Virus record (IMG/VR): IMGVR_UViG_2529293215_000019
Strand: one strand, 5' to 3'
DNA from: a virus
Taxonomy: Duplodnaviria > Heunggongvirae > Uroviricota > Caudoviricetes
Length of the DNA stretch: 29,656 bases
The notes under the pieces are model-generated. The model saw only the letters and a list, made by a program, of their open reading frames with translations. It did no database searches and was not told where the DNA came from. A program made the translations under genes and the position numbers. Shown piece by piece: positions 2,829-22,994 of the stretch. How positions within the stretch are numbered: position 1 is the stretch's first letter; each line of letters starts with the position of its first letter.

Positions 2829-3130
2829 TGTCCTGTTCTCGTTCAGTTGTATTACTGAATAACGCCTTAAAAATCGCCGTTATGAAAAATGGCGATTTAT
2901 CTCTTATTCAACTTGGTCTTGATAAAGAAAAACGCGAAATAACTGAGTCAGTTATCGCGATTTATCAGAACGAATTAAATCTCCTGTCTGATGTGGTCAA
3001 TTTACTTGTTAAACGCGCTGTATTTCACAAGCAAATCTCCTCCGTGGATGAACTGACGAAATTAACGACAGAACTCGCCAGCTATTGCGCTGATGAATTT
3101 AAGAAACTGAACGACAAAAGGAACTGGTAA
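2828..3130 (+). CDS. hypothetical early protein (P2 orf81 position)
   Basis: 100-aa ORF translationally coupled to neighbours (TGATG upstream, TAATG downstream). Confidence 0.5.
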   Translation: MSCSRSVVLLNNALKIAVMKNGDLSLIQLGLDKEKREITESVIAIYQNELNLLSDVVNLLVKRAVFHKQISSVDELTKLTTELASYCADEFKKLNDKRNW

Positions 3131-3626: not shown

Positions 3627-5898
3627 AGCCTCCGGGCGTTTTGTCCCTCCGTCAGCATTTGCCGCAGGCACCGGTAAGACGTTTACCGGTGCTTATGCAT
3701 GGAACGCGCCACGCGAGGCCGTCGGGCGCGAAAGACCCCTTACACGTGACGAGATGCGTCAGGTGCAAGGTGTTTTATCCACGATTAACCGCCTGCCTTA
3801 CTTTTTGCGCTCGCTGTTTACTTCACGCTATGAATACATCCGGCGCAATAAAAGCCCGGTGCACGGGTTTTATTTCCTCACATCCACTTTTCAGCGTCGT
3901 TTATGGCCGCGCATTGAGCGTGTGAATCAGCGCCATGAAATGAACACCGACGCGTCGTTGCTGTTTCTGGCAGAGCGTGACCACTATGCGCGCCTGCCGG
4001 GAATGAATGACAAGGAGCTGAAAAAGTTTGCCGCCCGTATCTCATCGCAGCTTTTCATGATGTATGAGGAACTCAGCGATGCCTGGGTGGATGCACATGG
4101 CGAAAAAGAATCGCTGTTTACGGATGAGGCGCAGGCTCACCTCTATGGTCATGTTGCTGGCGCTGCACGTGCTTTCAATATTTCCCCGCTTTACTGGAAA
4201 AAATACCGTAAAGGACAGATGACCACGAGGCAGGCATATTCTGCCATTGCCCGTCTGTTTAACGATGAGTGGTGGACTCATCAGCTCAAAGGCCAGCGTA
4301 TGCGCTGGCATGAGGCGTTACTGATTGCTGTCGGGGAGGTCAATAAAGACCGTTCTCCTTATGCCAGTAAACATGCCATTCGTGATGTGCGTGCACGCCG
4401 CCAGGCAAATCTGGAATTTCTTAAATCGTGTGACCTTGAAAACAGGGAAACCGGCGAGCGCATCGACCTTATCAGTAAGGTGATAGGCAGTATTTCTAAT
4501 CCTGAAATTCGCCGGATGGAGCTGATGAACACCATTGCCGGTATTGAGCGTTACGCCGCAGCAGAGGGTGATGTGGGGATGTTTATCACGCTGACCGCGC
4601 CGTCAAAGTATCACCCGACACGTCAGGTCGGAAAAGGCGAAAGTAAAACCGTCCAGCTAAATCACGGCTGGAACGATGAGGCATTTAATCCAAAGGATGC
4701 GCAGCGATATCTCTGCCATATCTGGAGCCTGATGCGCACGGCATTCAAGGATAATGATTTACAGGTCTACGGTTTGCGTGTCGTCGAGCCACACCACGAC
4801 GGAACGCCGCACTGGCATATGATGCTTTTTTGTAATCCACGCCAGCGTAACCAGATTATCGAAATCATGCGTCGCTATGCGCTCAAAGAGGATGGCGACG
4901 AAAGAGGAGCCGCGCGAAACCGTTTTCAGGCAAAACACCTTAACCGGGGCGGTGCTGCGGGATATATCGCGAAATACATTTCAAAAAATATCGACGGCTA
5001 TGCACTGGATGGTCAGCTCGATAACGATACCGGTAAGCCGCTTAAAGATACTGCCGCGGCTGTTACCGCATGGGCGTCAACGTGGCGCATCCCGCAATTT
5101 AAAACGGTTGGACTGCCGACAATGGGGGCTTACCGTGAACTACGCAAATTGCCTCGCGGCGTCAGCATTGCTGATGAGTTTGACGAGCGCGTCGAGGCTG
5201 CACGCGCCGCTGCAGACAGTGGTGATTTTGCGTTGTATATCAGCGCGCAGGGCGGGGCAAATGTCCCGCGCGATTGCCAGACTGTCAGGGTCGCCCGTAG
5301 CCCGTCGGATGACGTTAACGAGTACGAGGAAGAAGTCGAGAGAGTGGTCGGCATTTACGCGCCGCATCTCGGCGCGCGTCATATTCATATCACCAGAACG
5401 ACGGACTGGCGCATTGTGCCGAAAGTTCCGGTCGTTGAGCCTTTGACTTTAAAAAGCGGCATCGCCGCGCCTCGGAGTCCTGTCAATAACTGTGGAAAGC
5501 TCATCGGTGGTGATACTTCGTTACCGGCTCCCACGCCTTCTGAGCACGCCGCAGCAGTGCTTAATCTGGTTGATGACGGTGTTATCGAATGGAATGACCC
5601 GGAGGTCGTGAGGGCGCTCAGGGGCGCATTAAAACACGGCCTGAGAAGACCAAACCGTCAGCAAAGAAACGGAAGCCCGTTAAAACCGCATGAAATAGCG
5701 CCATCGGCCAGACTGACCCGGTCGGAAAGAATGCAAATTACCCGTATCCGCGTTGACCTTGCTCAGAACGGTATCAGGCCGCAGCGATGGGAGCTTGAGG
5801 CGCTGGCGCGTGGTGCGACCGTAGATTACAACGGGAAAAAATTTACGTATCCGGTCGCTGATGAGTGGAGTTGGTTTTATTGTTATTCAGAGCAATAA
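3616..5898 (+). CDS. A: rolling-circle replication initiation endonuclease (P2 gpA-like)
   Basis: ORF of about 760 aa from the first ATG (3616; the track start at 3574 is TTG); contains a paired-tyrosine segment AGYIAKYISKNIDGY typical of rolling-circle initiators; position and size match P2 gene A. Confidence 0.88.
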   Translation: MAVKASGRFVPPSAFAAGTGKTFTGAYAWNAPREAVGRERPLTRDEMRQVQGVLSTINRLPYFLRSLFTSRYEYIRRNKSPVHGFYFLTSTFQRRLWPRIERVNQRHEMNTDASLLFLAERDHYARLPGMNDKELKKFAARISSQLFMMYEELSDAWVDAHGEKESLFTDEAQAHLYGHVAGAARAFNISPLYWKKYRKGQMTTRQAYSAIARLFNDEWWTHQLKGQRMRWHEALLIAVGEVNKDRSPYASKHAIRDVRARRQANLEFLKSCDLENRETGERIDLISKVIGSISNPEIRRMELMNTIAGIERYAAAEGDVGMFITLTAPSKYHPTRQVGKGESKTVQLNHGWNDEAFNPKDAQRYLCHIWSLMRTAFKDNDLQVYGLRVVEPHHDGTPHWHMMLFCNPRQRNQIIEIMRRYALKEDGDERGAARNRFQAKHLNRGGAAGYIAKYISKNIDGYALDGQLDNDTGKPLKDTAAAVTAWASTWRIPQFKTVGLPTMGAYRELRKLPRGVSIADEFDERVEAARAAADSGDFALYISAQGGANVPRDCQTVRVARSPSDDVNEYEEEVERVVGIYAPHLGARHIHITRTTDWRIVPKVPVVEPLTLKSGIAAPRSPVNNCGKLIGGDTSLPAPTPSEHAAAVLNLVDDGVIEWNDPEVVRALRGALKHGLRRPNRQQRNGSPLKPHEIAPSARLTRSERMQITRIRVDLAQNGIRPQRWELEALARGATVDYNGKKFTYPVADEWSWFYCYSEQ

Positions 5899-6014: not shown

Positions 6015-7847
6015 ATGAATGATATCTTTGTTCTTACAAGGGAAGAGCTTGAAACACTAGATTATAGTGTTTTTATGCATATACCAGTTACATTTCATGC
6101 ACATAAAATAAAAAAATATCTGGATGGGATTGCTGAATCATCAGAAAACCCCAAAGAGAAAAAATTAGCATCTCTTTTTGGTATGCTATATAGTTTCAAT
6201 TTGCAAGTTGTTAACAACACTCCATCATTTGAACCCCAAATGATTTGGGGTAATAAAAGATCAATATTGCCTGAAGATTTTGATGAGCAGGTGAATGACT
6301 GTCTTTTATATGTTTCTCAAAAAATAACCAATCCATTTTTGTTATCAAGAATATATGATGTTGTTTGGTGTAATAATCGGAAAAATAAAGACGTGGCAAT
6401 TAAAGCAATTGATTCCTATGCTGAAATGCTAAATATAGCAATTGAAAGACTAATAATAAAAAACGAAAGCATGGATGAAAGTGATTTAAATTGCTTTATT
6501 TTTGCTCGTGATTATATTGCTAGGGCTTTGCACATTAATAAAATGGTCTACCCTAGAAAATCAGAAGGAAACATGGCGATTAAAAATGCCATTCATTCTC
6601 TTTATAGTATTCAAAATGAAAGATTAATCTTTGAAGGTTTCAATAATTTGACTTGGTTTATGGTGCGTGATTTTGATGGGTATAATCTGCAGTATGCGGA
6701 AAATGCTGAGAAGATGGCTGAGCAGCATAAAGATAAAAAATATTATGATGCTGTAAAATCACTTTATATGACAAGTGCAGTTATTTATGAAAAAAATGGT
6801 GAGTATGAACGTGCCAAGAGATGTAAACTGGCATCTGCAAATATTACTATTAAAGTTGCAACAGATCGACCTGATAATATGGGTAAGATCTCTTGGTTAA
6901 GAACAGCTATCTCTGAATTAAGACAGTACGGTGGTGATAGCCAACAGATAGAAGATTTAAAGGAACAACTTGCTAATTTGAGAGAAGAAGTAAGGAGTGA
7001 ATATGTCACTTTAAGCCATTCTATTGATATTAGTGACTTGGTTGCTGAAAGTGAAAAAAAACTGACGGGGCGTTCTTTGCCCGATATATTCAAAGTTTTA
7101 ATGCGTGAAACACCGATTGAAAATATTGAAAGCATGAGGGAGCAAGTTTTAAGATTATCAGAAAAAAGTTTATTCTCTAGTTTTGTTGGAACAGAAATTA
7201 ATGATGAGAGTGGGCGTAAGGTATATACAATCCCGCCGTTGGATAATAAAAAAGATATGAGTGATGATGTTGTTATTGATCAATATCTAAGAAATTTCGA
7301 GATTACTCATAAGATTTTTGTAAACGGTGTCTTTGAACCTGCTCGCTATGTACTTTCTCAAGAACATGGCTTGACGTTGTCAACATTCGTTAAATTAGTT
7401 ACAACTAGTCCAATTGTCAAGCCGGAGTTTAGGGAGATTTTTAATTTGGGCTTTTACAAATTATGGCAGGGAGATTACATCAGTGCAGCTTATCTTTTAA
7501 TACCACAAATGGAAGGTATGGTTCGTTATTATTATGAGCTTAGTGGAAAGGATGCTACTAGATATTTGGATAAGGGATTAGAGGAGTCAACAAGTATTTC
7601 TCAGCTTCTAGATAAATGCAGAGATGATTTGGAAAGTATCTTTTCTAAGAATCTTGTTTTAACTATCGATGTTCTTTTTAATAGAAAGAGTGGGGCAACC
7701 TTAAGACATAAATTAGCACATGGTAATTTATATACTAATGCTTGTTACGATGAAACAACGACATATGCATGCATCCTGATTTTCTTTCTGTGTGCTTATC
7801 CTCTCCTACCATATTTTGATACTGTATTTGAACAGGGCTCTGTTTGA
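6015..7847 (+). CDS. hypothetical 610-aa protein in the A-cos variable locus; candidate anti-phage defence / abortive-infection protein with C-terminal HEPN-like R-x4-H motif
   Basis: Long uninterrupted ORF; first ATG at 6015 with AAGGTGA SD (track start at 5913 is TTG); markedly AT-rich by eye versus GC-rich flanking phage genes; occupies the P2 tin/old position; RHKLAHG motif at 7704-7724. No family recognised from sequence alone. Confidence 0.8.
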   Translation: MNDIFVLTREELETLDYSVFMHIPVTFHAHKIKKYLDGIAESSENPKEKKLASLFGMLYSFNLQVVNNTPSFEPQMIWGNKRSILPEDFDEQVNDCLLYVSQKITNPFLLSRIYDVVWCNNRKNKDVAIKAIDSYAEMLNIAIERLIIKNESMDESDLNCFIFARDYIARALHINKMVYPRKSEGNMAIKNAIHSLYSIQNERLIFEGFNNLTWFMVRDFDGYNLQYAENAEKMAEQHKDKKYYDAVKSLYMTSAVIYEKNGEYERAKRCKLASANITIKVATDRPDNMGKISWLRTAISELRQYGGDSQQIEDLKEQLANLREEVRSEYVTLSHSIDISDLVAESEKKLTGRSLPDIFKVLMRETPIENIESMREQVLRLSEKSLFSSFVGTEINDESGRKVYTIPPLDNKKDMSDDVVIDQYLRNFEITHKIFVNGVFEPARYVLSQEHGLTLSTFVKLVTTSPIVKPEFREIFNLGFYKLWQGDYISAAYLLIPQMEGMVRYYYELSGKDATRYLDKGLEESTSISQLLDKCRDDLESIFSKNLVLTIDVLFNRKSGATLRHKLAHGNLYTNACYDETTTYACILIFFLCAYPLLPYFDTVFEQGSV

Positions 7848-19326: not shown

Positions 19327-19930
19327 TTCGCGACTGCTGCCGACCGGCTCATCACCGCTTGAAGTCGCCGCCGCAAAAGCCTGTGCGGAAATTGAAAAAA
19401 CGCCGGTCAGTATTCGTGAGCTGTGGAACCCGGATACCTGTCCGGCAAATCTGCTGCCGTGGCTGGCGTGGTCATTTTCGGTTGACCGCTGGGATGATAA
19501 ATGGCCGGAAGCGACAAAACGCGCTGTTATCCGCGATGCGTATTTCATTCACTGCCATAAGGGTACTATAGGCGCAATCCGGCGTGTGGTGGAGCCGCTC
19601 GGCTATCTGATTGAGGTGAGGGAGTGGTGGCAGCTCAACGAGGAGCCGGGGACGTTCCGCATCGTTGTTGGCGTGCTTGAGCAGGGTATTACCGAGGAAA
19701 TGTATCAGGAGCTGGAGCGTCTCGTTGCTGATGCAAAACCGGCAAGCCGCCATCTGACGGGACTGGCTATCAGTTTAAGTACAACCGGCAACATTTTTGC
19801 CGGTGCGGGATGCTATCACGGTGACGCCCTGACGGTTTATCCCTACACCCCGGAGGCCATTATTGTCGGAGGGGATTATTTCCCGGCCTCGGCCATTCAT
19901 TTAATTGATAACCTGAGAGTAAACGCATGA
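19319..19930 (+). CDS. I: baseplate protein (P2 gpI-like)
   Basis: 203 aa; ATG at 19319 overlaps the J stop and the stop overlaps the H start; somewhat longer than the 176 aa I recall for P2 gpI. Confidence 0.8.
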   Translation: MSDSRLLPTGSSPLEVAAAKACAEIEKTPVSIRELWNPDTCPANLLPWLAWSFSVDRWDDKWPEATKRAVIRDAYFIHCHKGTIGAIRRVVEPLGYLIEVREWWQLNEEPGTFRIVVGVLEQGITEEMYQELERLVADAKPASRHLTGLAISLSTTGNIFAGAGCYHGDALTVYPYTPEAIIVGGDYFPASAIHLIDNLRVNA

Positions 19931-21120
19931 CAGTGAAATACTACGCCATTCTGACTAATCAGGGCGCAGCACGGCTGGCTAACGCGACGATGCTCGGCAG
20001 TAAGCTGAATCTGACGCAAATGGCCGTTGGTGATGCGAATGGTGTCTTGCCGACACCAGACCCGGCACAGACAAAACTGATTAACCAGAAACGCATCGCG
20101 CCGCTGAATCTTCTGAGTGTTGACCCGAACAACCAGAGCCAGATTATTGCGGAGCAAATCATCCCTGAGAACGAGGGTGGATTCTGGATCCGTGAGATTG
20201 GGCTTTATGATGATGAAGGCGTACTCATTGCGGTGGCGAACTGCCCGGAAACGTACAAACCGCAGTTGCAGGAAGGCAGTGGTCGTACCCAGACTATCCG
20301 CATGATTCTGGTTGTCACGAATACCGAAGCTATCACGCTGAAAATCGACCCGTCGGTGGTACTGGCGACCCGTAAATACGTGGATGATGAAGTCCTGGAA
20401 TTAAAGCTGTATGTGGATGACCAGATGAGAAACCACATTGCCGCACAGGATCCTCATACCCAGTATGCGCAGAAACATAATCCGACATTTACCGGAGAAC
20501 CAAAAGCGCCGACGCCTGCCGCAGGAAATAACACCACGCGGATTGCGACCACTGAGTTTGTTCAGGCCGCTATTACCGCTCTGATTAACGGTGCGCCAGC
20601 CACGCTGGACACACTGAAAGAAATTGCCGCAGCCATTAACAATGACCCGAAATTCAGTACCACCATTAACAATGCGCTGTCAGGTAAGCAGCCACTGGAT
20701 GAGACGCTGACTCATTTGAGTGGAAAGGATGTTGCCGGTCTTCTCGCATACCTTGGTTTGGGAGAAGCGGCAAAACGGAATGTAGGTAACGGGCAAAACC
20801 AAATTCCGGATATGGCGGCGTTTGCCAGTTCACTTTCATCAACGGGTTTTCAAAAACTTCCTTCAGGTCTGATTATTCAGTGGGGTATTGTCAGTGGAGC
20901 ATCAAACTATACGGTGACTTACCCGGTAACATTCCCAAATCGTTCACTTGCGCTGTTGGCTGTGCCACATACAACGTCGGTGGCTGGTATATCTGCAATG
21001 GGCATAGCGAACTGTTCTGATATCAGCAAATCACAGTTCTATATAATTGTTGGCGGTATATCTCAGGGAGAAATTGTCAAATATGAAAGATCCTGTTTTT
21101 GGGTAGCAATCGGTGTATAG
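19927..21120 (+). CDS. H: tail fibre protein (gpH-like), constant N-terminal part fused to invertible C-terminal variable part
   Basis: 397 aa; ATG at 19927; the last ~110 codons lie inside the invertible segment, downstream of the 34-bp repeat at 20753-20786. Confidence 0.8.
   Translation: MTVKYYAILTNQGAARLANATMLGSKLNLTQMAVGDANGVLPTPDPAQTKLINQKRIAPLNLLSVDPNNQSQIIAEQIIPENEGGFWIREIGLYDDEGVLIAVANCPETYKPQLQEGSGRTQTIRMILVVTNTEAITLKIDPSVVLATRKYVDDEVLELKLYVDDQMRNHIAAQDPHTQYAQKHNPTFTGEPKAPTPAAGNNTTRIATTEFVQAAITALINGAPATLDTLKEIAAAINNDPKFSTTINNALSGKQPLDETLTHLSGKDVAGLLAYLGLGEAAKRNVGNGQNQIPDMAAFASSLSSTGFQKLPSGLIIQWGIVSGASNYTVTYPVTFPNRSLALLAVPHTTSVAGISAMGIANCSDISKSQFYIIVGGISQGEIVKYERSCFWVAIGV
20753..20786. 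repeat. left 34-bp inverted repeat (invertase crossover site) inside gene H
   Basis: TTGGTTTGGGAGAAGCGGCAAAACGGAATGTAGG; the perfect reverse complement occurs at 22300-22333. Confidence 0.8.
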
Positions 21121-21128
21121 GTATATCT

Positions 21129-21524
21129 ATGATTTATTTCTCAAAATCGACTAATGGTTTTTTCTTTGATGGTATAAACAGCGACATGCCTGCTGACATT
21201 GTTGAGATAAGTACAGACTTATACAATGAATTAATTGCCGGACAGCAGGAAGGGGGTAAATTAATCACGTCAGATGAAAATGGTTTACCGGTACTGAAAT
21301 CTCCGGCGATTGATTATGTCGCACGTGCTGAAAATCAGCGAATGCAGTTACTTGCTCATGCCGATAATGTCACAGCTGACTGGCGGGTGGAATTAATGCT
21401 TGGTGATATCAGCAGTACAGATAAAGAAAAACTATCTGCCTGGATGGACTACAAAAAAGAAGTAAAAGCCGTCGACACTTCGACGGCTCCTGAGATTAGC
21501 TGGCCTGAGTTACCGGAGGTGTAG
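21129..21524 (+). CDS. tail fibre assembly protein (Tfa, orientation 1)
   Basis: 131 aa from the first ATG (21129), directly after the H stop; C-terminus VDTSTAPEISWPELPEV resembles the conserved Tfa C-terminal segment and is shared with the minus-strand copy. Confidence 0.7.
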   Translation: MIYFSKSTNGFFFDGINSDMPADIVEISTDLYNELIAGQQEGGKLITSDENGLPVLKSPAIDYVARAENQRMQLLAHADNVTADWRVELMLGDISSTDKEKLSAWMDYKKEVKAVDTSTAPEISWPELPEV

Positions 21525-21939
21525 GCCATTCAATATCTGGAGCACTGGAGGTATCCACCAGTTCCAGTGCGTCCAGGTAATCCAGCCACAAATTATATTG
21601 CGCCAGTTCCTCACCTTTCAGACGACCAATAGCTGCTTTGCCAGGCCATTGCTTACTGTTCATGTATTCGTTAGCCTGGTTAATTAGTAGCTGTCTTTCT
21701 GATTCAGTAATTTCAATAAGCTCTTCATGCGTGGGTGGAGGAATATCTGCCCACGCAGGCAGCCCATCATCTCCGGCAATACGGATTTTTCCTTGTGGCG
21801 GTTCAGCCATAAACTCACTGATAATATTTTGATTTACTTCCTTAGCGTCTGATAAATCCCATCCCTCTGATTTATATTTATCAATCATATCCACAGGGAA
21901 AAAAGCATTATGCCTTGCGCTATAAACATATTCGTTCAT
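21496..21939 (-). CDS. tail fibre assembly protein (Tfa', orientation 2)
   Basis: 147 aa from the ATG at 21939 (GGGTGA SD; track start at 21948 is GTG); C-terminus VDTSSAPDIEWPTPPV parallels the plus-strand Tfa; 3' end overlaps the plus-strand tfa by 29 bp. Confidence 0.65.
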   Translation of the reverse strand: MNEYVYSARHNAFFPVDMIDKYKSEGWDLSDAKEVNQNIISEFMAEPPQGKIRIAGDDGLPAWADIPPPTHEELIEITESERQLLINQANEYMNSKQWPGKAAIGRLKGEELAQYNLWLDYLDALELVDTSSAPDIEWPTPPVTQAS

Positions 21940-21959
21940 ATAAATCACCCTGAATAAAA

Positions 21960-22333
21960 TTACTCACCAACAGCCCACCAACTGTAATTCATCGATACTG
22001 TGGAGCTGGTTGATGCAGTTCTGTAAGCGGAATTAAAACCGGTTAGTGTTGGACCTTCTGCAGTCATCACGAATCCCCGTCCAGCGCCTAAAGGCGCACC
22101 ACCATCACCAGAATGGGTAAGCATGGCGCAGTCCACTTTTTTAGGAAAAGGGATGCTGAATGTAATTCTCATTGTTTGCGTCGATAATGTCGGCGTAATC
22201 GCACCACGACCATATTGCAGGATTTTCCCGTTGGGTAATTTCATCCATCCATCACCACTGGCAAAAGAGGTCATGTCCGGTATCTGATTTTCCCCCGTTC
22301 CTACATTCCGTTTTGCCGCTTCTCCCAAACCAA
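21960..22333 (-). other. alternative tail-fibre C-terminal coding segment (Hv'), without its own start; fused to H only after inversion
   Basis: Minus-strand reading frame through the right repeat encodes [24 protein letters not shown]..., paralleling the H segment [25 protein letters not shown]... after the left repeat; stop at 21960-21962. Confidence 0.65.
22300..22333. repeat. right 34-bp inverted repeat (invertase crossover site)
   Basis: Reverse complement of 22300-22333 is identical to 20753-20786. Confidence 0.8.
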
Positions 22334-22400
22334 CGTTTATGAAAATGCAGAGATAACGGGCAAGTGGCATCATCTCCGGTTTTTATTCAGGGGGATGCTC

Positions 22401-22994
22401 ATGCTTATTGGCTATGTACGCGTGTCGACAAATGACCAGAACACGGAATTGCAGCGTAACGCGCTGGAGTGCGCAGGATGCGAGCGGATTTTTGAGGATA
22501 AAATCAGCGGCACGAAGTCCGACCGACCGGGACTGAAAAAACTGCTCAGAACATTATCAGCAGGTGACACTCTGGTAGTCTGGAAGCTGGACAGGCTGGG
22601 GCGTAGTATGCGGCATCTGGTCATTCTGGTTGAGGAACTGCGCGAACGCGGCGTTAATTTTCGCAGCCTGACAGATGCTATTGATACCAGCACGCCGATG
22701 GGGCGTTTTTTCTTTCATGTGATGGGTGCCCTGGCTGAAATGGAACGAGAGCTCATTGTCGAGCGGACTCGGGCCGGGCTGGAAGCGGCCAGAGCCAAAG
22801 GTCGTATTGGTGGCAGACGTCCTAAACTCACCGCGAGTGAGTGGGAGCAGGCCGGGCGTTTGCTGGCTGCAGGGGAGTCACGTCAACGCGTGGCACTGAT
22901 TTTTGATATTGGTCTGTCCACGCTCTATAAAAAATTTCCCTCATCAGCGACAAAGAATAAATTGTGTCATCCCTTAGCCAACCGGGACAAATAG
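22401..22994 (+). CDS. serine recombinase DNA invertase (Gin/Cin/Pin/Hin family)
   Basis: N-terminus MLIGYVRVSTNDQNTELQRNAL with the catalytic-serine motif, and HTH-containing C-terminus LSTLYKK, closely resemble Mu Gin; AGGGGGA SD upstream of the ATG at 22401; adjacent to the invertible segment. Confidence 0.9.
   Translation: MLIGYVRVSTNDQNTELQRNALECAGCERIFEDKISGTKSDRPGLKKLLRTLSAGDTLVVWKLDRLGRSMRHLVILVEELRERGVNFRSLTDAIDTSTPMGRFFFHVMGALAEMERELIVERTRAGLEAARAKGRIGGRRPKLTASEWEQAGRLLAAGESRQRVALIFDIGLSTLYKKFPSSATKNKLCHPLANRDK

Follow-up and report, generated by a model that had tools for sequence, protein, structure and literature searches.

Introduction

The closest described counterparts of the locus analysed here are the invertible tail-fibre cassettes of e14, Mu, P1 and the P2-like prophages. 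In E. coli K-12, the P segment of e14 (stfP-tfaP/tfaE-stfE', with pinE) consists, as the present locus does, of a constant fibre part, two opposed modules that each combine a fibre tip with a tfa gene, and an adjoining Pin invertase. Inversion of this segment has been documented experimentally (PMC4272514; PMC12529663), and e14 occurs in both orientations within cultures (PMC4272514). Furthermore, P2-like prophages have been reported to undergo phase variation through inversion (PMC4272514).

The G segment of Mu (S-U/U'-S', with gin) and the C segment of P1 (S-U/U'-S', with cin) are likewise invertible host-range switches that employ a serine invertase. Like the locus described below, they have crossover sites of the 26-bp class and two convergent Caudo_TAP genes at their centre, and fusion to the constant part selects which of the two halves is expressed. 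The P1 record also annotates a Fis-dependent recombinational enhancer in cin. Unlike the genes studied here, the central genes U and U' do not overlap, but are separated by a 28-bp spacer that carries a GC-rich hairpin (AAGGCCCG-ATAG-CGGGCCTT).

In the window, by which we mean the whole stretch of 29,656 nucleotides that was analysed, an initial reading of the sequence had pointed to two convergent tail-fibre assembly genes, tfa and tfa', within an invertible fibre cassette, whose 3' ends share 29 bp of DNA. It had proposed that this antisense arrangement constrains both coding sequences, and that mutual interference between the two transcripts may leave only the gene co-oriented with the fibre gene H to be expressed.

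An invertible tail-fibre cassette in a P2-like prophage

The genes of the locus follow each other in the order baseplate genes, H, tfa (plus strand), tfa' (minus strand), H'v (minus strand), serine invertase, and tail sheath and tube genes (Table 1). The locus is an invertible tail-fibre cassette of the Pin/Gin type, carried by a P2-like prophage of E. coli O157:H7, and it belongs to the Din-type (Hin/Gin/Cin/Pin) invertible tail-fibre cassettes, all four of the defining features that were tested being present. H carries a Phage_tail_fib domain at its N-terminus (Pfam, 1e-62) as well as Gp53-like_C. The alternative tip H'v is silent, because it has no constant part and its ORF starts inside the inverted repeat. 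The invertase matches the Pfam families Resolvase (PF00239, 8.3e-53) and HTH_7 (PF02796, 1.1e-12).

Table 1. Features of the cassette and of the tfa/tfa' junction, with positions counted in the window
Feature	Position	Strand	Description and source
H, ON form: constant N-terminal part plus variable tip Hv	19927..21120	+	397 aa; PGAP 'phage tail protein'
Left 26-bp crossover site	20741..20766	+	TTCTCGCATACCTTGGTTTGGGAGAA; outer end of 89-nt inverted repeat
Invertible segment	20754..22332		about 1.58 kb; repeat arms, natural isolates, simulated inversion
tfa	21129..21524	+	131 aa; tail fibre assembly chaperone; PGAP WP_000639074.1; Caudo_TAP 1.8e-24
Terminator-like hairpin	21464..21491	-	GCCGTCGA-AGTG-TCGACGGC then TTTTACTTCTTTTT; 12 pairs; putative function
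Conserved central island	21477..21776		junction plus C-terminal half of tfa'; variable modules on both sides
3'-3' coding overlap of tfa and tfa'	21496..21524		29 bp; ORF reading and PGAP
tfa'	21496..21939	-	147 aa; alternative tail fibre assembly chaperone; PGAP WP_001008235.1; Caudo_TAP 2.4e-31
28-nt symmetric core	21501..21528		TGGCCT GAGTTA CCGG AGGTGT AGGCCA; pattern scan and junction comparison
H'v, alternative variable fibre tip	21960..22370	-	Pfam Gp53-like_C; PGAP CDS
Right 26-bp crossover site	22320..22345	-	TTTTCATAAACGTTGGTTTGGGAGAA (minus-strand reading); inverted-repeat alignment, simulated crossover
Serine DNA invertase, Pin/Gin/Cin/Hin family	22395..22994	+	PGAP 'recombinase family protein', start 22401

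The inverted repeat has a length of 89 nt, and its two arms (20741-20829 and 22257-22345) are 81% complementary. The 26-bp crossover sites presumably resemble the hix/gix consensus. In other complete O157:H7 genomes the segment is flipped, with breaks at exactly 20750/53-22333/36, and both orientations occur. Inversion in silico at 20753/20754 and 22332/22333 yields an in-frame H::H'v fibre of 399 aa, and the simulated product agrees with the sequence of strain SS TX 754-1 without a mismatch over 1300 nt. This support for inversion is a comparison of genomes in the population and not an assay; it indicates that the switch is active now or was so recently, and that it sets which pair of tip and chaperone gets read. 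The placement of the convergent tail-fibre assembly genes within an invertible fibre cassette is thus borne out by Pfam, by the inverted repeat and by flipped natural isolates.

The midpoint of the invertible segment (21543) and the centre of the overlap core are about 29 bp apart. We also considered the tfa/tfa' junction as an additional crossover site of the invertase, in the manner of a shufflon, but rejected it, since it is unlike both of the real 26-bp sites and every natural inversion breaks at the outer sites.

The 3' ends of tfa and tfa'

Judged by their sequences, both tfa and tfa' are tail fibre assembly proteins of the Caudo_TAP family (PF02413). In tfa, residues 5-130 of 131 align to positions 7-131 of the 131 of the profile (86.8 bits), and in tfa', residues 13-145 of the 150-aa ORF align to positions 3-130 of 131 (109 bits), the gathering cut-off of the family being 22.1 bits. 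The match to tfa' stops at the last proline of WPTPP, such that the five residues VTQAS lie outside the model. A sequence search with tfa' found no solved structures. The reading of the genes needed one correction, in that PGAP places the start of tfa' at the ATG at 21939 (147 aa) and not at the GTG at 21948.

The gene that is now co-oriented with H, tfa, has what we call an A-type end, WPELPEV, whereas tfa', now in the silent orientation, has a B-type end, WPTPPVTQAS. On the plus strand, tfa closes with TGG CCT GAG TTA CCG GAG GTG TAG (stop at 21522-21524), and on the minus strand, tfa' closes with TGG CCT ACA CCT CCG GTA ACT CAG GCC AGC TAA (stop at 21498-21496). For each gene, the shared 29 bp hold eight sense codons and the stop, minus one base. 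Direct reading of the ORFs, Pfam and PGAP all agree on this convergent 3' overlap, as the original prediction had it. The C-termini that it quoted, VDTSTAPEISWPELPEV for tfa and VDTSSAPDIEWPTPPVTQAS for tfa', each followed directly by the stop, are correct, and the similar motif that it saw in them is the conserved C-terminal motif of their family.

The possibility that the overlap would vanish upon re-annotation was examined, and the overlap stays. It cannot be removed in this way, because the stops are set by the reading frames and PF02413 validates both frames to their ends. PGAP also annotates these two CDSs, overlapping by the same 29 bp, in an E. coli O157:H7 chromosome that is 99.9% identical.

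One might nevertheless ask whether a mis-called stop, a sequencing error or the chance extension of an ORF in one genome has produced the overlap. Eight stop-free codons are not improbable by themselves ((61/64)^8, approximately 0.68). However, the Pfam matches extend to both C-termini, the PGAP annotation is identical, and the same geometry is found in thousands of genomes and in several genera, as described in the next section. Furthermore, the core pattern of the junction, TGGCC-N7-CCGG-N5-TAGGCCA, has one match in the window, as compared to 0.00 matches expected by chance from shuffled sequences. We consider an artefact or a chance origin to be extremely improbable, and it may be regarded as already refuted by the conservation data.

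Conservation across phages and genomes

The check that had been proposed for the overlap, namely its conservation in other invertible fibre cassettes, was carried out and gave a strongly positive result, which extends over several genera of the Enterobacterales and includes e14 of K-12. We surveyed 166 loci, comprising 160 from IMG/VR that were picked for their similarity to either tfa' or the invertase, and six reference loci. A 29-bp overlap was found in 139 of the 147 convergent Tfa pairs in this survey. The remaining pairs have a 20-bp overlap (three pairs) or gaps of 3-4 bp (three pairs), to which are added Mu with its gap of 28 bp and one rearranged locus with a gap of 30 bp. The Tfa proteins surveyed form 29 clusters at 70% identity and occur in more than 20 combinations.

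A scan with the core pattern gave a similar picture. It is present in more than 120 IMG/VR contigs, and Tfa-like ORFs lie on both strands at 112 of the 120 pattern sites among the IMG/VR matches listed. At these 120 listed sites, the overlap measures 29 bp in 112 cases and 20 bp in six.

In a further survey of species-representative genomes, loci were selected by the invertase only. Here, the 29-bp overlap was seen in Escherichia/Shigella, Trabulsiella, Pseudescherichia, Siccibacter, Buttiauxella and Rosenbergiella. The overlap is 20 bp in Citrobacter, and of two Mangrovibacter species, one has an overlap of 26 bp and the other of 4 bp. Pantoea and Yersinia ruckeri have gaps of 26 bp and 37 bp, respectively, in both cases with a hairpin in the spacer. 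Pairs with values of 130, 135, -146, -226, -329, -1217 and 32 were left uninterpreted, as they represent spurious ORF pairings or non-adjacent genes. Among complete E. coli genomes, a 60-mer of the e14-type junction is found in 2249 of 5426 (approximately 40%), with at most seven copies per genome, and the annotation among the 60-mer matches listed reads 'tail fiber assembly protein (x2)'.

The figure of 139 in 147 pairs may largely reflect the common ancestry of one central DNA block instead of the overlap being maintained independently; the 149 pairs whose junctions were compared have only 23 distinct junction sequences. Furthermore, the existence of viable alternatives, with an overlap of 4 bp or with gaps of 3-4, 26, 28 and 37 bp, means that the overlap is not required for function. 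Taken together, the 29-bp overlap is real, conserved and ordinary, and it can be found in the existing annotation of E. coli K-12 and of thousands of genomes.

A symmetric core under constraint from both strands

The conserved frame of the junction is TGGCCT-N6-CCGG-N6-AGGCCA, in which the WPxxP motifs of both proteins are placed symmetrically. Each gene contributes its Trp-Pro codons as one outer arm of this 28-nt core, and the central CCGG is common to the Pro codons that close W-P-x-x-P in each of them. Beyond the centre of the core, each gene is the antisense of its partner. The consensus end of the A-type proteins is WPELPE(A/V) and that of the B-type proteins is WPTPP(A/V)xQA(R/S), each followed by the stop.

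We compared the 23 distinct junction sequences that were obtained from 149 pairs. The stop of gene A is TAG in all 23 of them, because its last two bases are antisense to the CT of the Pro codon CCT of gene B. Likewise, the residue that follows WP in B is always T, N or I, because the first base of its codon is an A that is antisense to the T of TAG. In the tail of B, Ala is invariant and Gln is present in 20 of the 23 distinct junctions, this part being the antisense of TGG-CC in the Trp-Pro codons of A. The stop of B is TAA or TGA and is created by the (V/I)(I/S/N) codons of A. The bases that are invariant across the 23 junctions are exactly those predicted if both proteins exert constraint. 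The fixed amber stop, the restricted residue after WP and the QA tail thus uphold the proposal that the overlap constrains both sequences.

An insertion or deletion between the two Trp-Pro pairs would be expected to break the WPxxP spacing in at least one of the two proteins. Since any such indel would spoil one WPxxP motif, the geometry would be hard to change once it had formed. Such a geometric lock would explain why the overlap is fixed at 29 bp (or at 20 or 26 bp with an earlier stop) despite the divergence of the genes and the swapping of modules. The 28-nt frame is retained in the 20-bp and 26-bp variants, where only the stop has a different position. A literature search found no paper describing the 28-nt symmetric frame, and a general search on the overlap returned nothing specific; the early papers on the e14 P segment lay outside the scope of both searches.

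A conserved island between variable modules

We mapped the conservation along the cassette with 151 loci that were chosen solely by the invertase, of which 141 had a match to the window. The interval 21477-21776, which comprises the junction and the C-terminal half of tfa', is covered by 45-71 loci. Coverage falls to 4-12 loci on the left (20877-21476, i.e., the fibre tip and most of tfa) and to 12 loci on the right (21827-22226, the N-terminal part of tfa' and H'v), whereas the constant part of H is covered by approximately 50 loci. Matches of phages to the window break at 21500 or at approximately 21689.

In a paper that cites the structure of TfaMu (PMC9608196), Tfa is described as modular: its N-terminal domain, which binds the fibre, is variable, and its helical C-terminal domain is conserved. 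A conserved island between variable flanks fits this architecture. From the mosaic boundaries, the island probably serves as the inner homology anchor for the recombinational exchange of a half-cassette, that is, of a fibre tip together with the N-terminal domain of its Tfa.

Inversion as the probable determinant of the expressed tfa

We think it likely that the overlap represents a fixed joint at which two paralogous tfa genes meet tail to tail in the middle of the cassette, which would make it a structural by-product and not a regulator, and that DNA inversion sets which tfa is expressed. Only the half that is joined to the constant part of H would be read, along with any element beyond the segment that drives H. 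In the present orientation, the silent H'v-tfa' half faces the invertase gene at a distance of approximately 20 bp, nothing is positioned such that it would be transcribed in sense, and a scan for sigma-70-like sites found none upstream of it on the minus strand. As the silent half has neither a constant fibre part nor an evident promoter, orientation alone explains exclusive expression. Antisense interference is unnecessary, because inversion suffices, as it does in Mu and P1, where there is no overlap.

The original prediction that interference between the transcripts chooses the expressed gene is for these reasons unsupported. Under such a model, transcriptional collision or cleavage of the RNA duplex by RNase III would help to silence the tfa gene that is not co-oriented with H. 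In its favour, the overlap of the CDSs gives rise to complementary RNA whenever both strands are transcribed. The plus strand has no canonical terminator after tfa, and late transcripts probably run antisense across tfa'. Moreover, the homologous pair of K-12, tfaP-tfaE, is listed among 165 convergent excludons identified by ExcludonFinder, in at least 50% of 58 MG1655 transcriptomes (PMC12288877). However, that call is computational, comes without a functional test and is near-automatic for overlapping CDSs, and the signal of RNA from both strands of tfaP-tfaE could arise from the mixture of e14 orientations in cultures alone. The duplex of 29 bp is also small in relation to the approximately 850 nt of antisense RNA that read-through would generate regardless of the overlap, and Mu and P1 obey the same on/off logic with their 28-bp spacer. 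The cassette does resemble the convergent excludons in that the transcripts of convergent genes must overlap. Excludons, however, are antisense transcription units with a promoter for each gene and with reciprocal repression that depends on the overlap, which makes their expression mutually exclusive, whereas here exclusivity is already given by the inversion of the DNA. We therefore regard a contribution of antisense silencing as improbable.

The search for promoters also returned a sigma-70-like site on the minus strand inside tfa' (21621-21592). Although this site is conserved in 138 loci, the coding sequence that contains it is conserved as well, which makes the finding uninformative, and we discarded it. 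Promoter-like sites are not enriched in the region (four found, as compared to 4.8 expected). With respect to read-through into the sheath operon, a scan for the P2-type late promoter dyad TGT-N12-ACA gave one exact match, which is distant (7349), and matches with one mismatch occur at chance level (132 against 137 expected) and are uninformative.

Hairpins at the junction and transcript ends

At the RNA level, the region contains seven terminator-like sites, as compared to 3.1 expected. One of them is a strong hairpin on the minus strand (Table 1), which begins 5 nt past the stop of tfa', within the tfa codons for AVDTSTA. In addition, three hairpins form on each strand of the interval 21460-21570 (z of -4.1 and -4.6). 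Neither this unusual folding nor the asymmetric hairpin is needed if the overlap is a structural by-product.

A different role for the junction can be envisaged from these structures. The Trp-Pro palindrome TGGCCT...AGGCCA and the hairpins might replace the bidirectional terminator of Mu and P1 and, whichever the orientation, stabilise the late transcript or end it. In this context, it is noteworthy that the cassettes without an overlap have a GC hairpin in the spacer (Mu and P1, with the stem mentioned above, as well as Pantoea and Yersinia ruckeri), and that the hairpin just past the tfa' stop is not only strong but is followed by a T-run; the three hairpins on both strands would also be in keeping with such a role. 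However, the symmetry of the fold is automatic, because two homologous motifs are encoded in inverted orientation. The central hairpin was evaluated as a terminator and rejected, since by itself it does not fold better than shuffled sequences do (z of -0.8 and -1.5) and has no T-run on either side. The strong terminator-like hairpin is present in every copy of the 131-aa tfa module, but it is confined to this module, and the common e14-type module has a marginal stem of 5-6 bp in its place. Furthermore, nothing comparable to it follows the A-type gene, and no known RNA element of Rfam reaches its gathering threshold anywhere in the window. All in all, it seems to us quite unlikely that the junction acts as a transcript end in both orientations.

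A related proposal, which we judge very improbable, is that the tail-to-tail fusion removed a central terminator of the Mu/P1 type, and that the asymmetric one after tfa' makes read-through, and hence the dosage of the invertase, dependent on orientation. If the hairpin terminates, then with the A-type tfa in the ON position, read-through would proceed antisense over the silent half into the invertase and the sheath operon, and with tfa' in the ON position, late transcription would stop at the centre of the segment. If this were true, the switching rate or the antisense load would depend on orientation, which would amount to a feedback that is undescribed for Din-type switches.

Meaning of the overlap and relation to known cassettes

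Returning to the reading of the overlap as a by-product of a fixed gene arrangement, a convergent tfa overlap of 29 bp (or of 20 bp) is what normally marks the middle of an invertible host-range cassette of the e14/P2 type. When such an overlap is encountered, it should be taken neither for an annotation error nor for evidence of antisense regulation, and no long-standing question is opened by it. In practical terms, TGGCC-N7-CCGG-N5-TAGGCCA provides a simple and nearly specific marker of these cassettes. The junction is also a compact example of how protein motifs on opposite strands can fix a gene arrangement, with an amber stop imposed on the first gene and a 'QA' tail on its partner. The central island, in turn, helps to explain how modules of fibre tip and chaperone are exchanged, which is useful for engineering the host range of phages or tailocins.

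Among the P2-like elements, phages pro483 and Cartapus, the 'P2' of O157:H43 T22 and P2-like prophages of EPEC carry invertible fibre cassettes. These share the context of the present one, consisting of the baseplate genes J and I, H, tfa, tfa', H'v, invertase and sheath. In pro483, Cartapus and the 'P2' of T22, the same 29-bp overlap joins other combinations of modules, for example with a 200-aa Tfa in place of the 131-aa one. The left module of the window is common to Cartapus, and its right module is common to pro483 and T22.

The junction of e14 is closely similar. Its tfaP (1208132-1208545) and tfaE (1208517-1209119) overlap by 29 bp, as do the genes here, and it has the same core and the same types of tail, WPELPEA and WPTPPAVQAR, with few differences in the bases of the core (here, the ends are PEV and VTQAS). 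The two elements differ in their surroundings, as e14 is a defective lambdoid element, whereas the present cassette belongs to the prophage of a P2-like myovirus and is followed directly by the sheath and tube genes. They also differ in the A-type partner, which is of the 200-aa TfaE type in e14 and a rarer module of 131 aa (cluster 3) here, and in the strong antisense terminator-like hairpin that the tfa module of the window carries, unlike e14. In Mu and P1, by contrast, the central proteins end in WPQKPE and FPEQPE, and the 28-nt core is absent. Thus, the centre of the cassette described here is of the overlapping e14 type and not of the Mu/P1 type, in which a spacer with a hairpin separates the two genes.

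Centre of the invertible cassette

A strong hairpin resembling an intrinsic terminator starts 5 nt downstream of the tfa' stop codon on the minus strand, and it is contained within the AVDTSTA codons of the convergent gene tfa (Table). All copies of the window's tfa module have this hairpin. On the plus strand 3′ of tfa, no equivalent was found. If the hairpin is functional, the orientation of the segment would set read-through towards the invertase gene.

A sigma-70-like site lies within tfa', where its hexamers coincide with Leu-Lys and Tyr-Asn codons. An RNA initiated here would be about 125 nt long, cross the overlap of the two genes and have its 3′ end at the hairpin. The site is kept in 138 loci, but the surrounding coding sequence is itself conserved, and the region around it shows no excess of promoter-like sites.

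Table. Sequence features of the window and of comparison cassettes
Feature	Location	Strand	Sequence
Intrinsic-terminator-like hairpin, strong	window 21464-21491	minus	GCCGTCGA-AGTG-TCGACGGC, then TTTTACTTCTTTTT
Sigma-70-like site inside tfa', 10/12 matches	window 21592-21621	minus	CTGAAA-18 nt-TATAAT
16-nt inverted repeat, 94% complementary	window 21944-21959 and 22381-22396		
GC-rich hairpin in short spacer, non-overlapping tfa genes	Mu (L006) 3004-3031		AAGGCCCG-ATAG-CGGGCCTT
Same	P1 (L239) 6320-6347		AAGGCCCG-ATAG-CGGGCCTT
Same	Pantoea (L207) ~4830-4855		AAAGCCCGC-TAT-GCGGGCTTT
Same	Yersinia ruckeri (L215) ~5092-5128		

Sequences around the invertase gene

The inverted repeat places TTTTATTCAGGGNGAT a short way 5′ of two start codons, that of tfa' on the minus strand and that of the invertase gene on the plus strand. 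This common stretch could represent a shared translation-initiation region, or it could be due to chance. The invertase gene contains, in its 3′ end, a one-mismatch match to the P2 late-promoter dyad TGT-N12-ACA, TGTGTCATCCCTTAGCCA (window 22963-22980), and the sheath gene starts about 75-90 nt downstream of this match; such matches occur in the window at the frequency expected by chance.

Relationship to other cassettes

A conserved central island (window 21477-21776) is flanked by variable modules at 20877-21476 and 21827-22226, and the mosaic breakpoints in the invertible segment fall at ~21500 and ~21689-21780. The left module matches phage Cartapus and the right module matches pro483 and T22, and the window's cassette is therefore a recombinant of modules known elsewhere.

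The flipped orientation is found in E. coli O157:H7 SS TX 754-1 (NZ_CP038300.1), where the fusion of the fibre gene H to its alternative tip H'v is an intact ORF of 399 aa (positions 3711-4910 of locus L002, minus strand). PGAP annotates it as a phage tail protein that is "partial, missing C-terminus" together with a separate gp53-like CDS, a split that looks like an annotation artefact arising from the inversion.

Since cassettes with non-overlapping tfa genes, among them those of Mu and P1, carry a GC-rich hairpin in the spacer, the comparison suggests that the cassette centre has two alternative designs, either an overlap or a spacer with a terminator.
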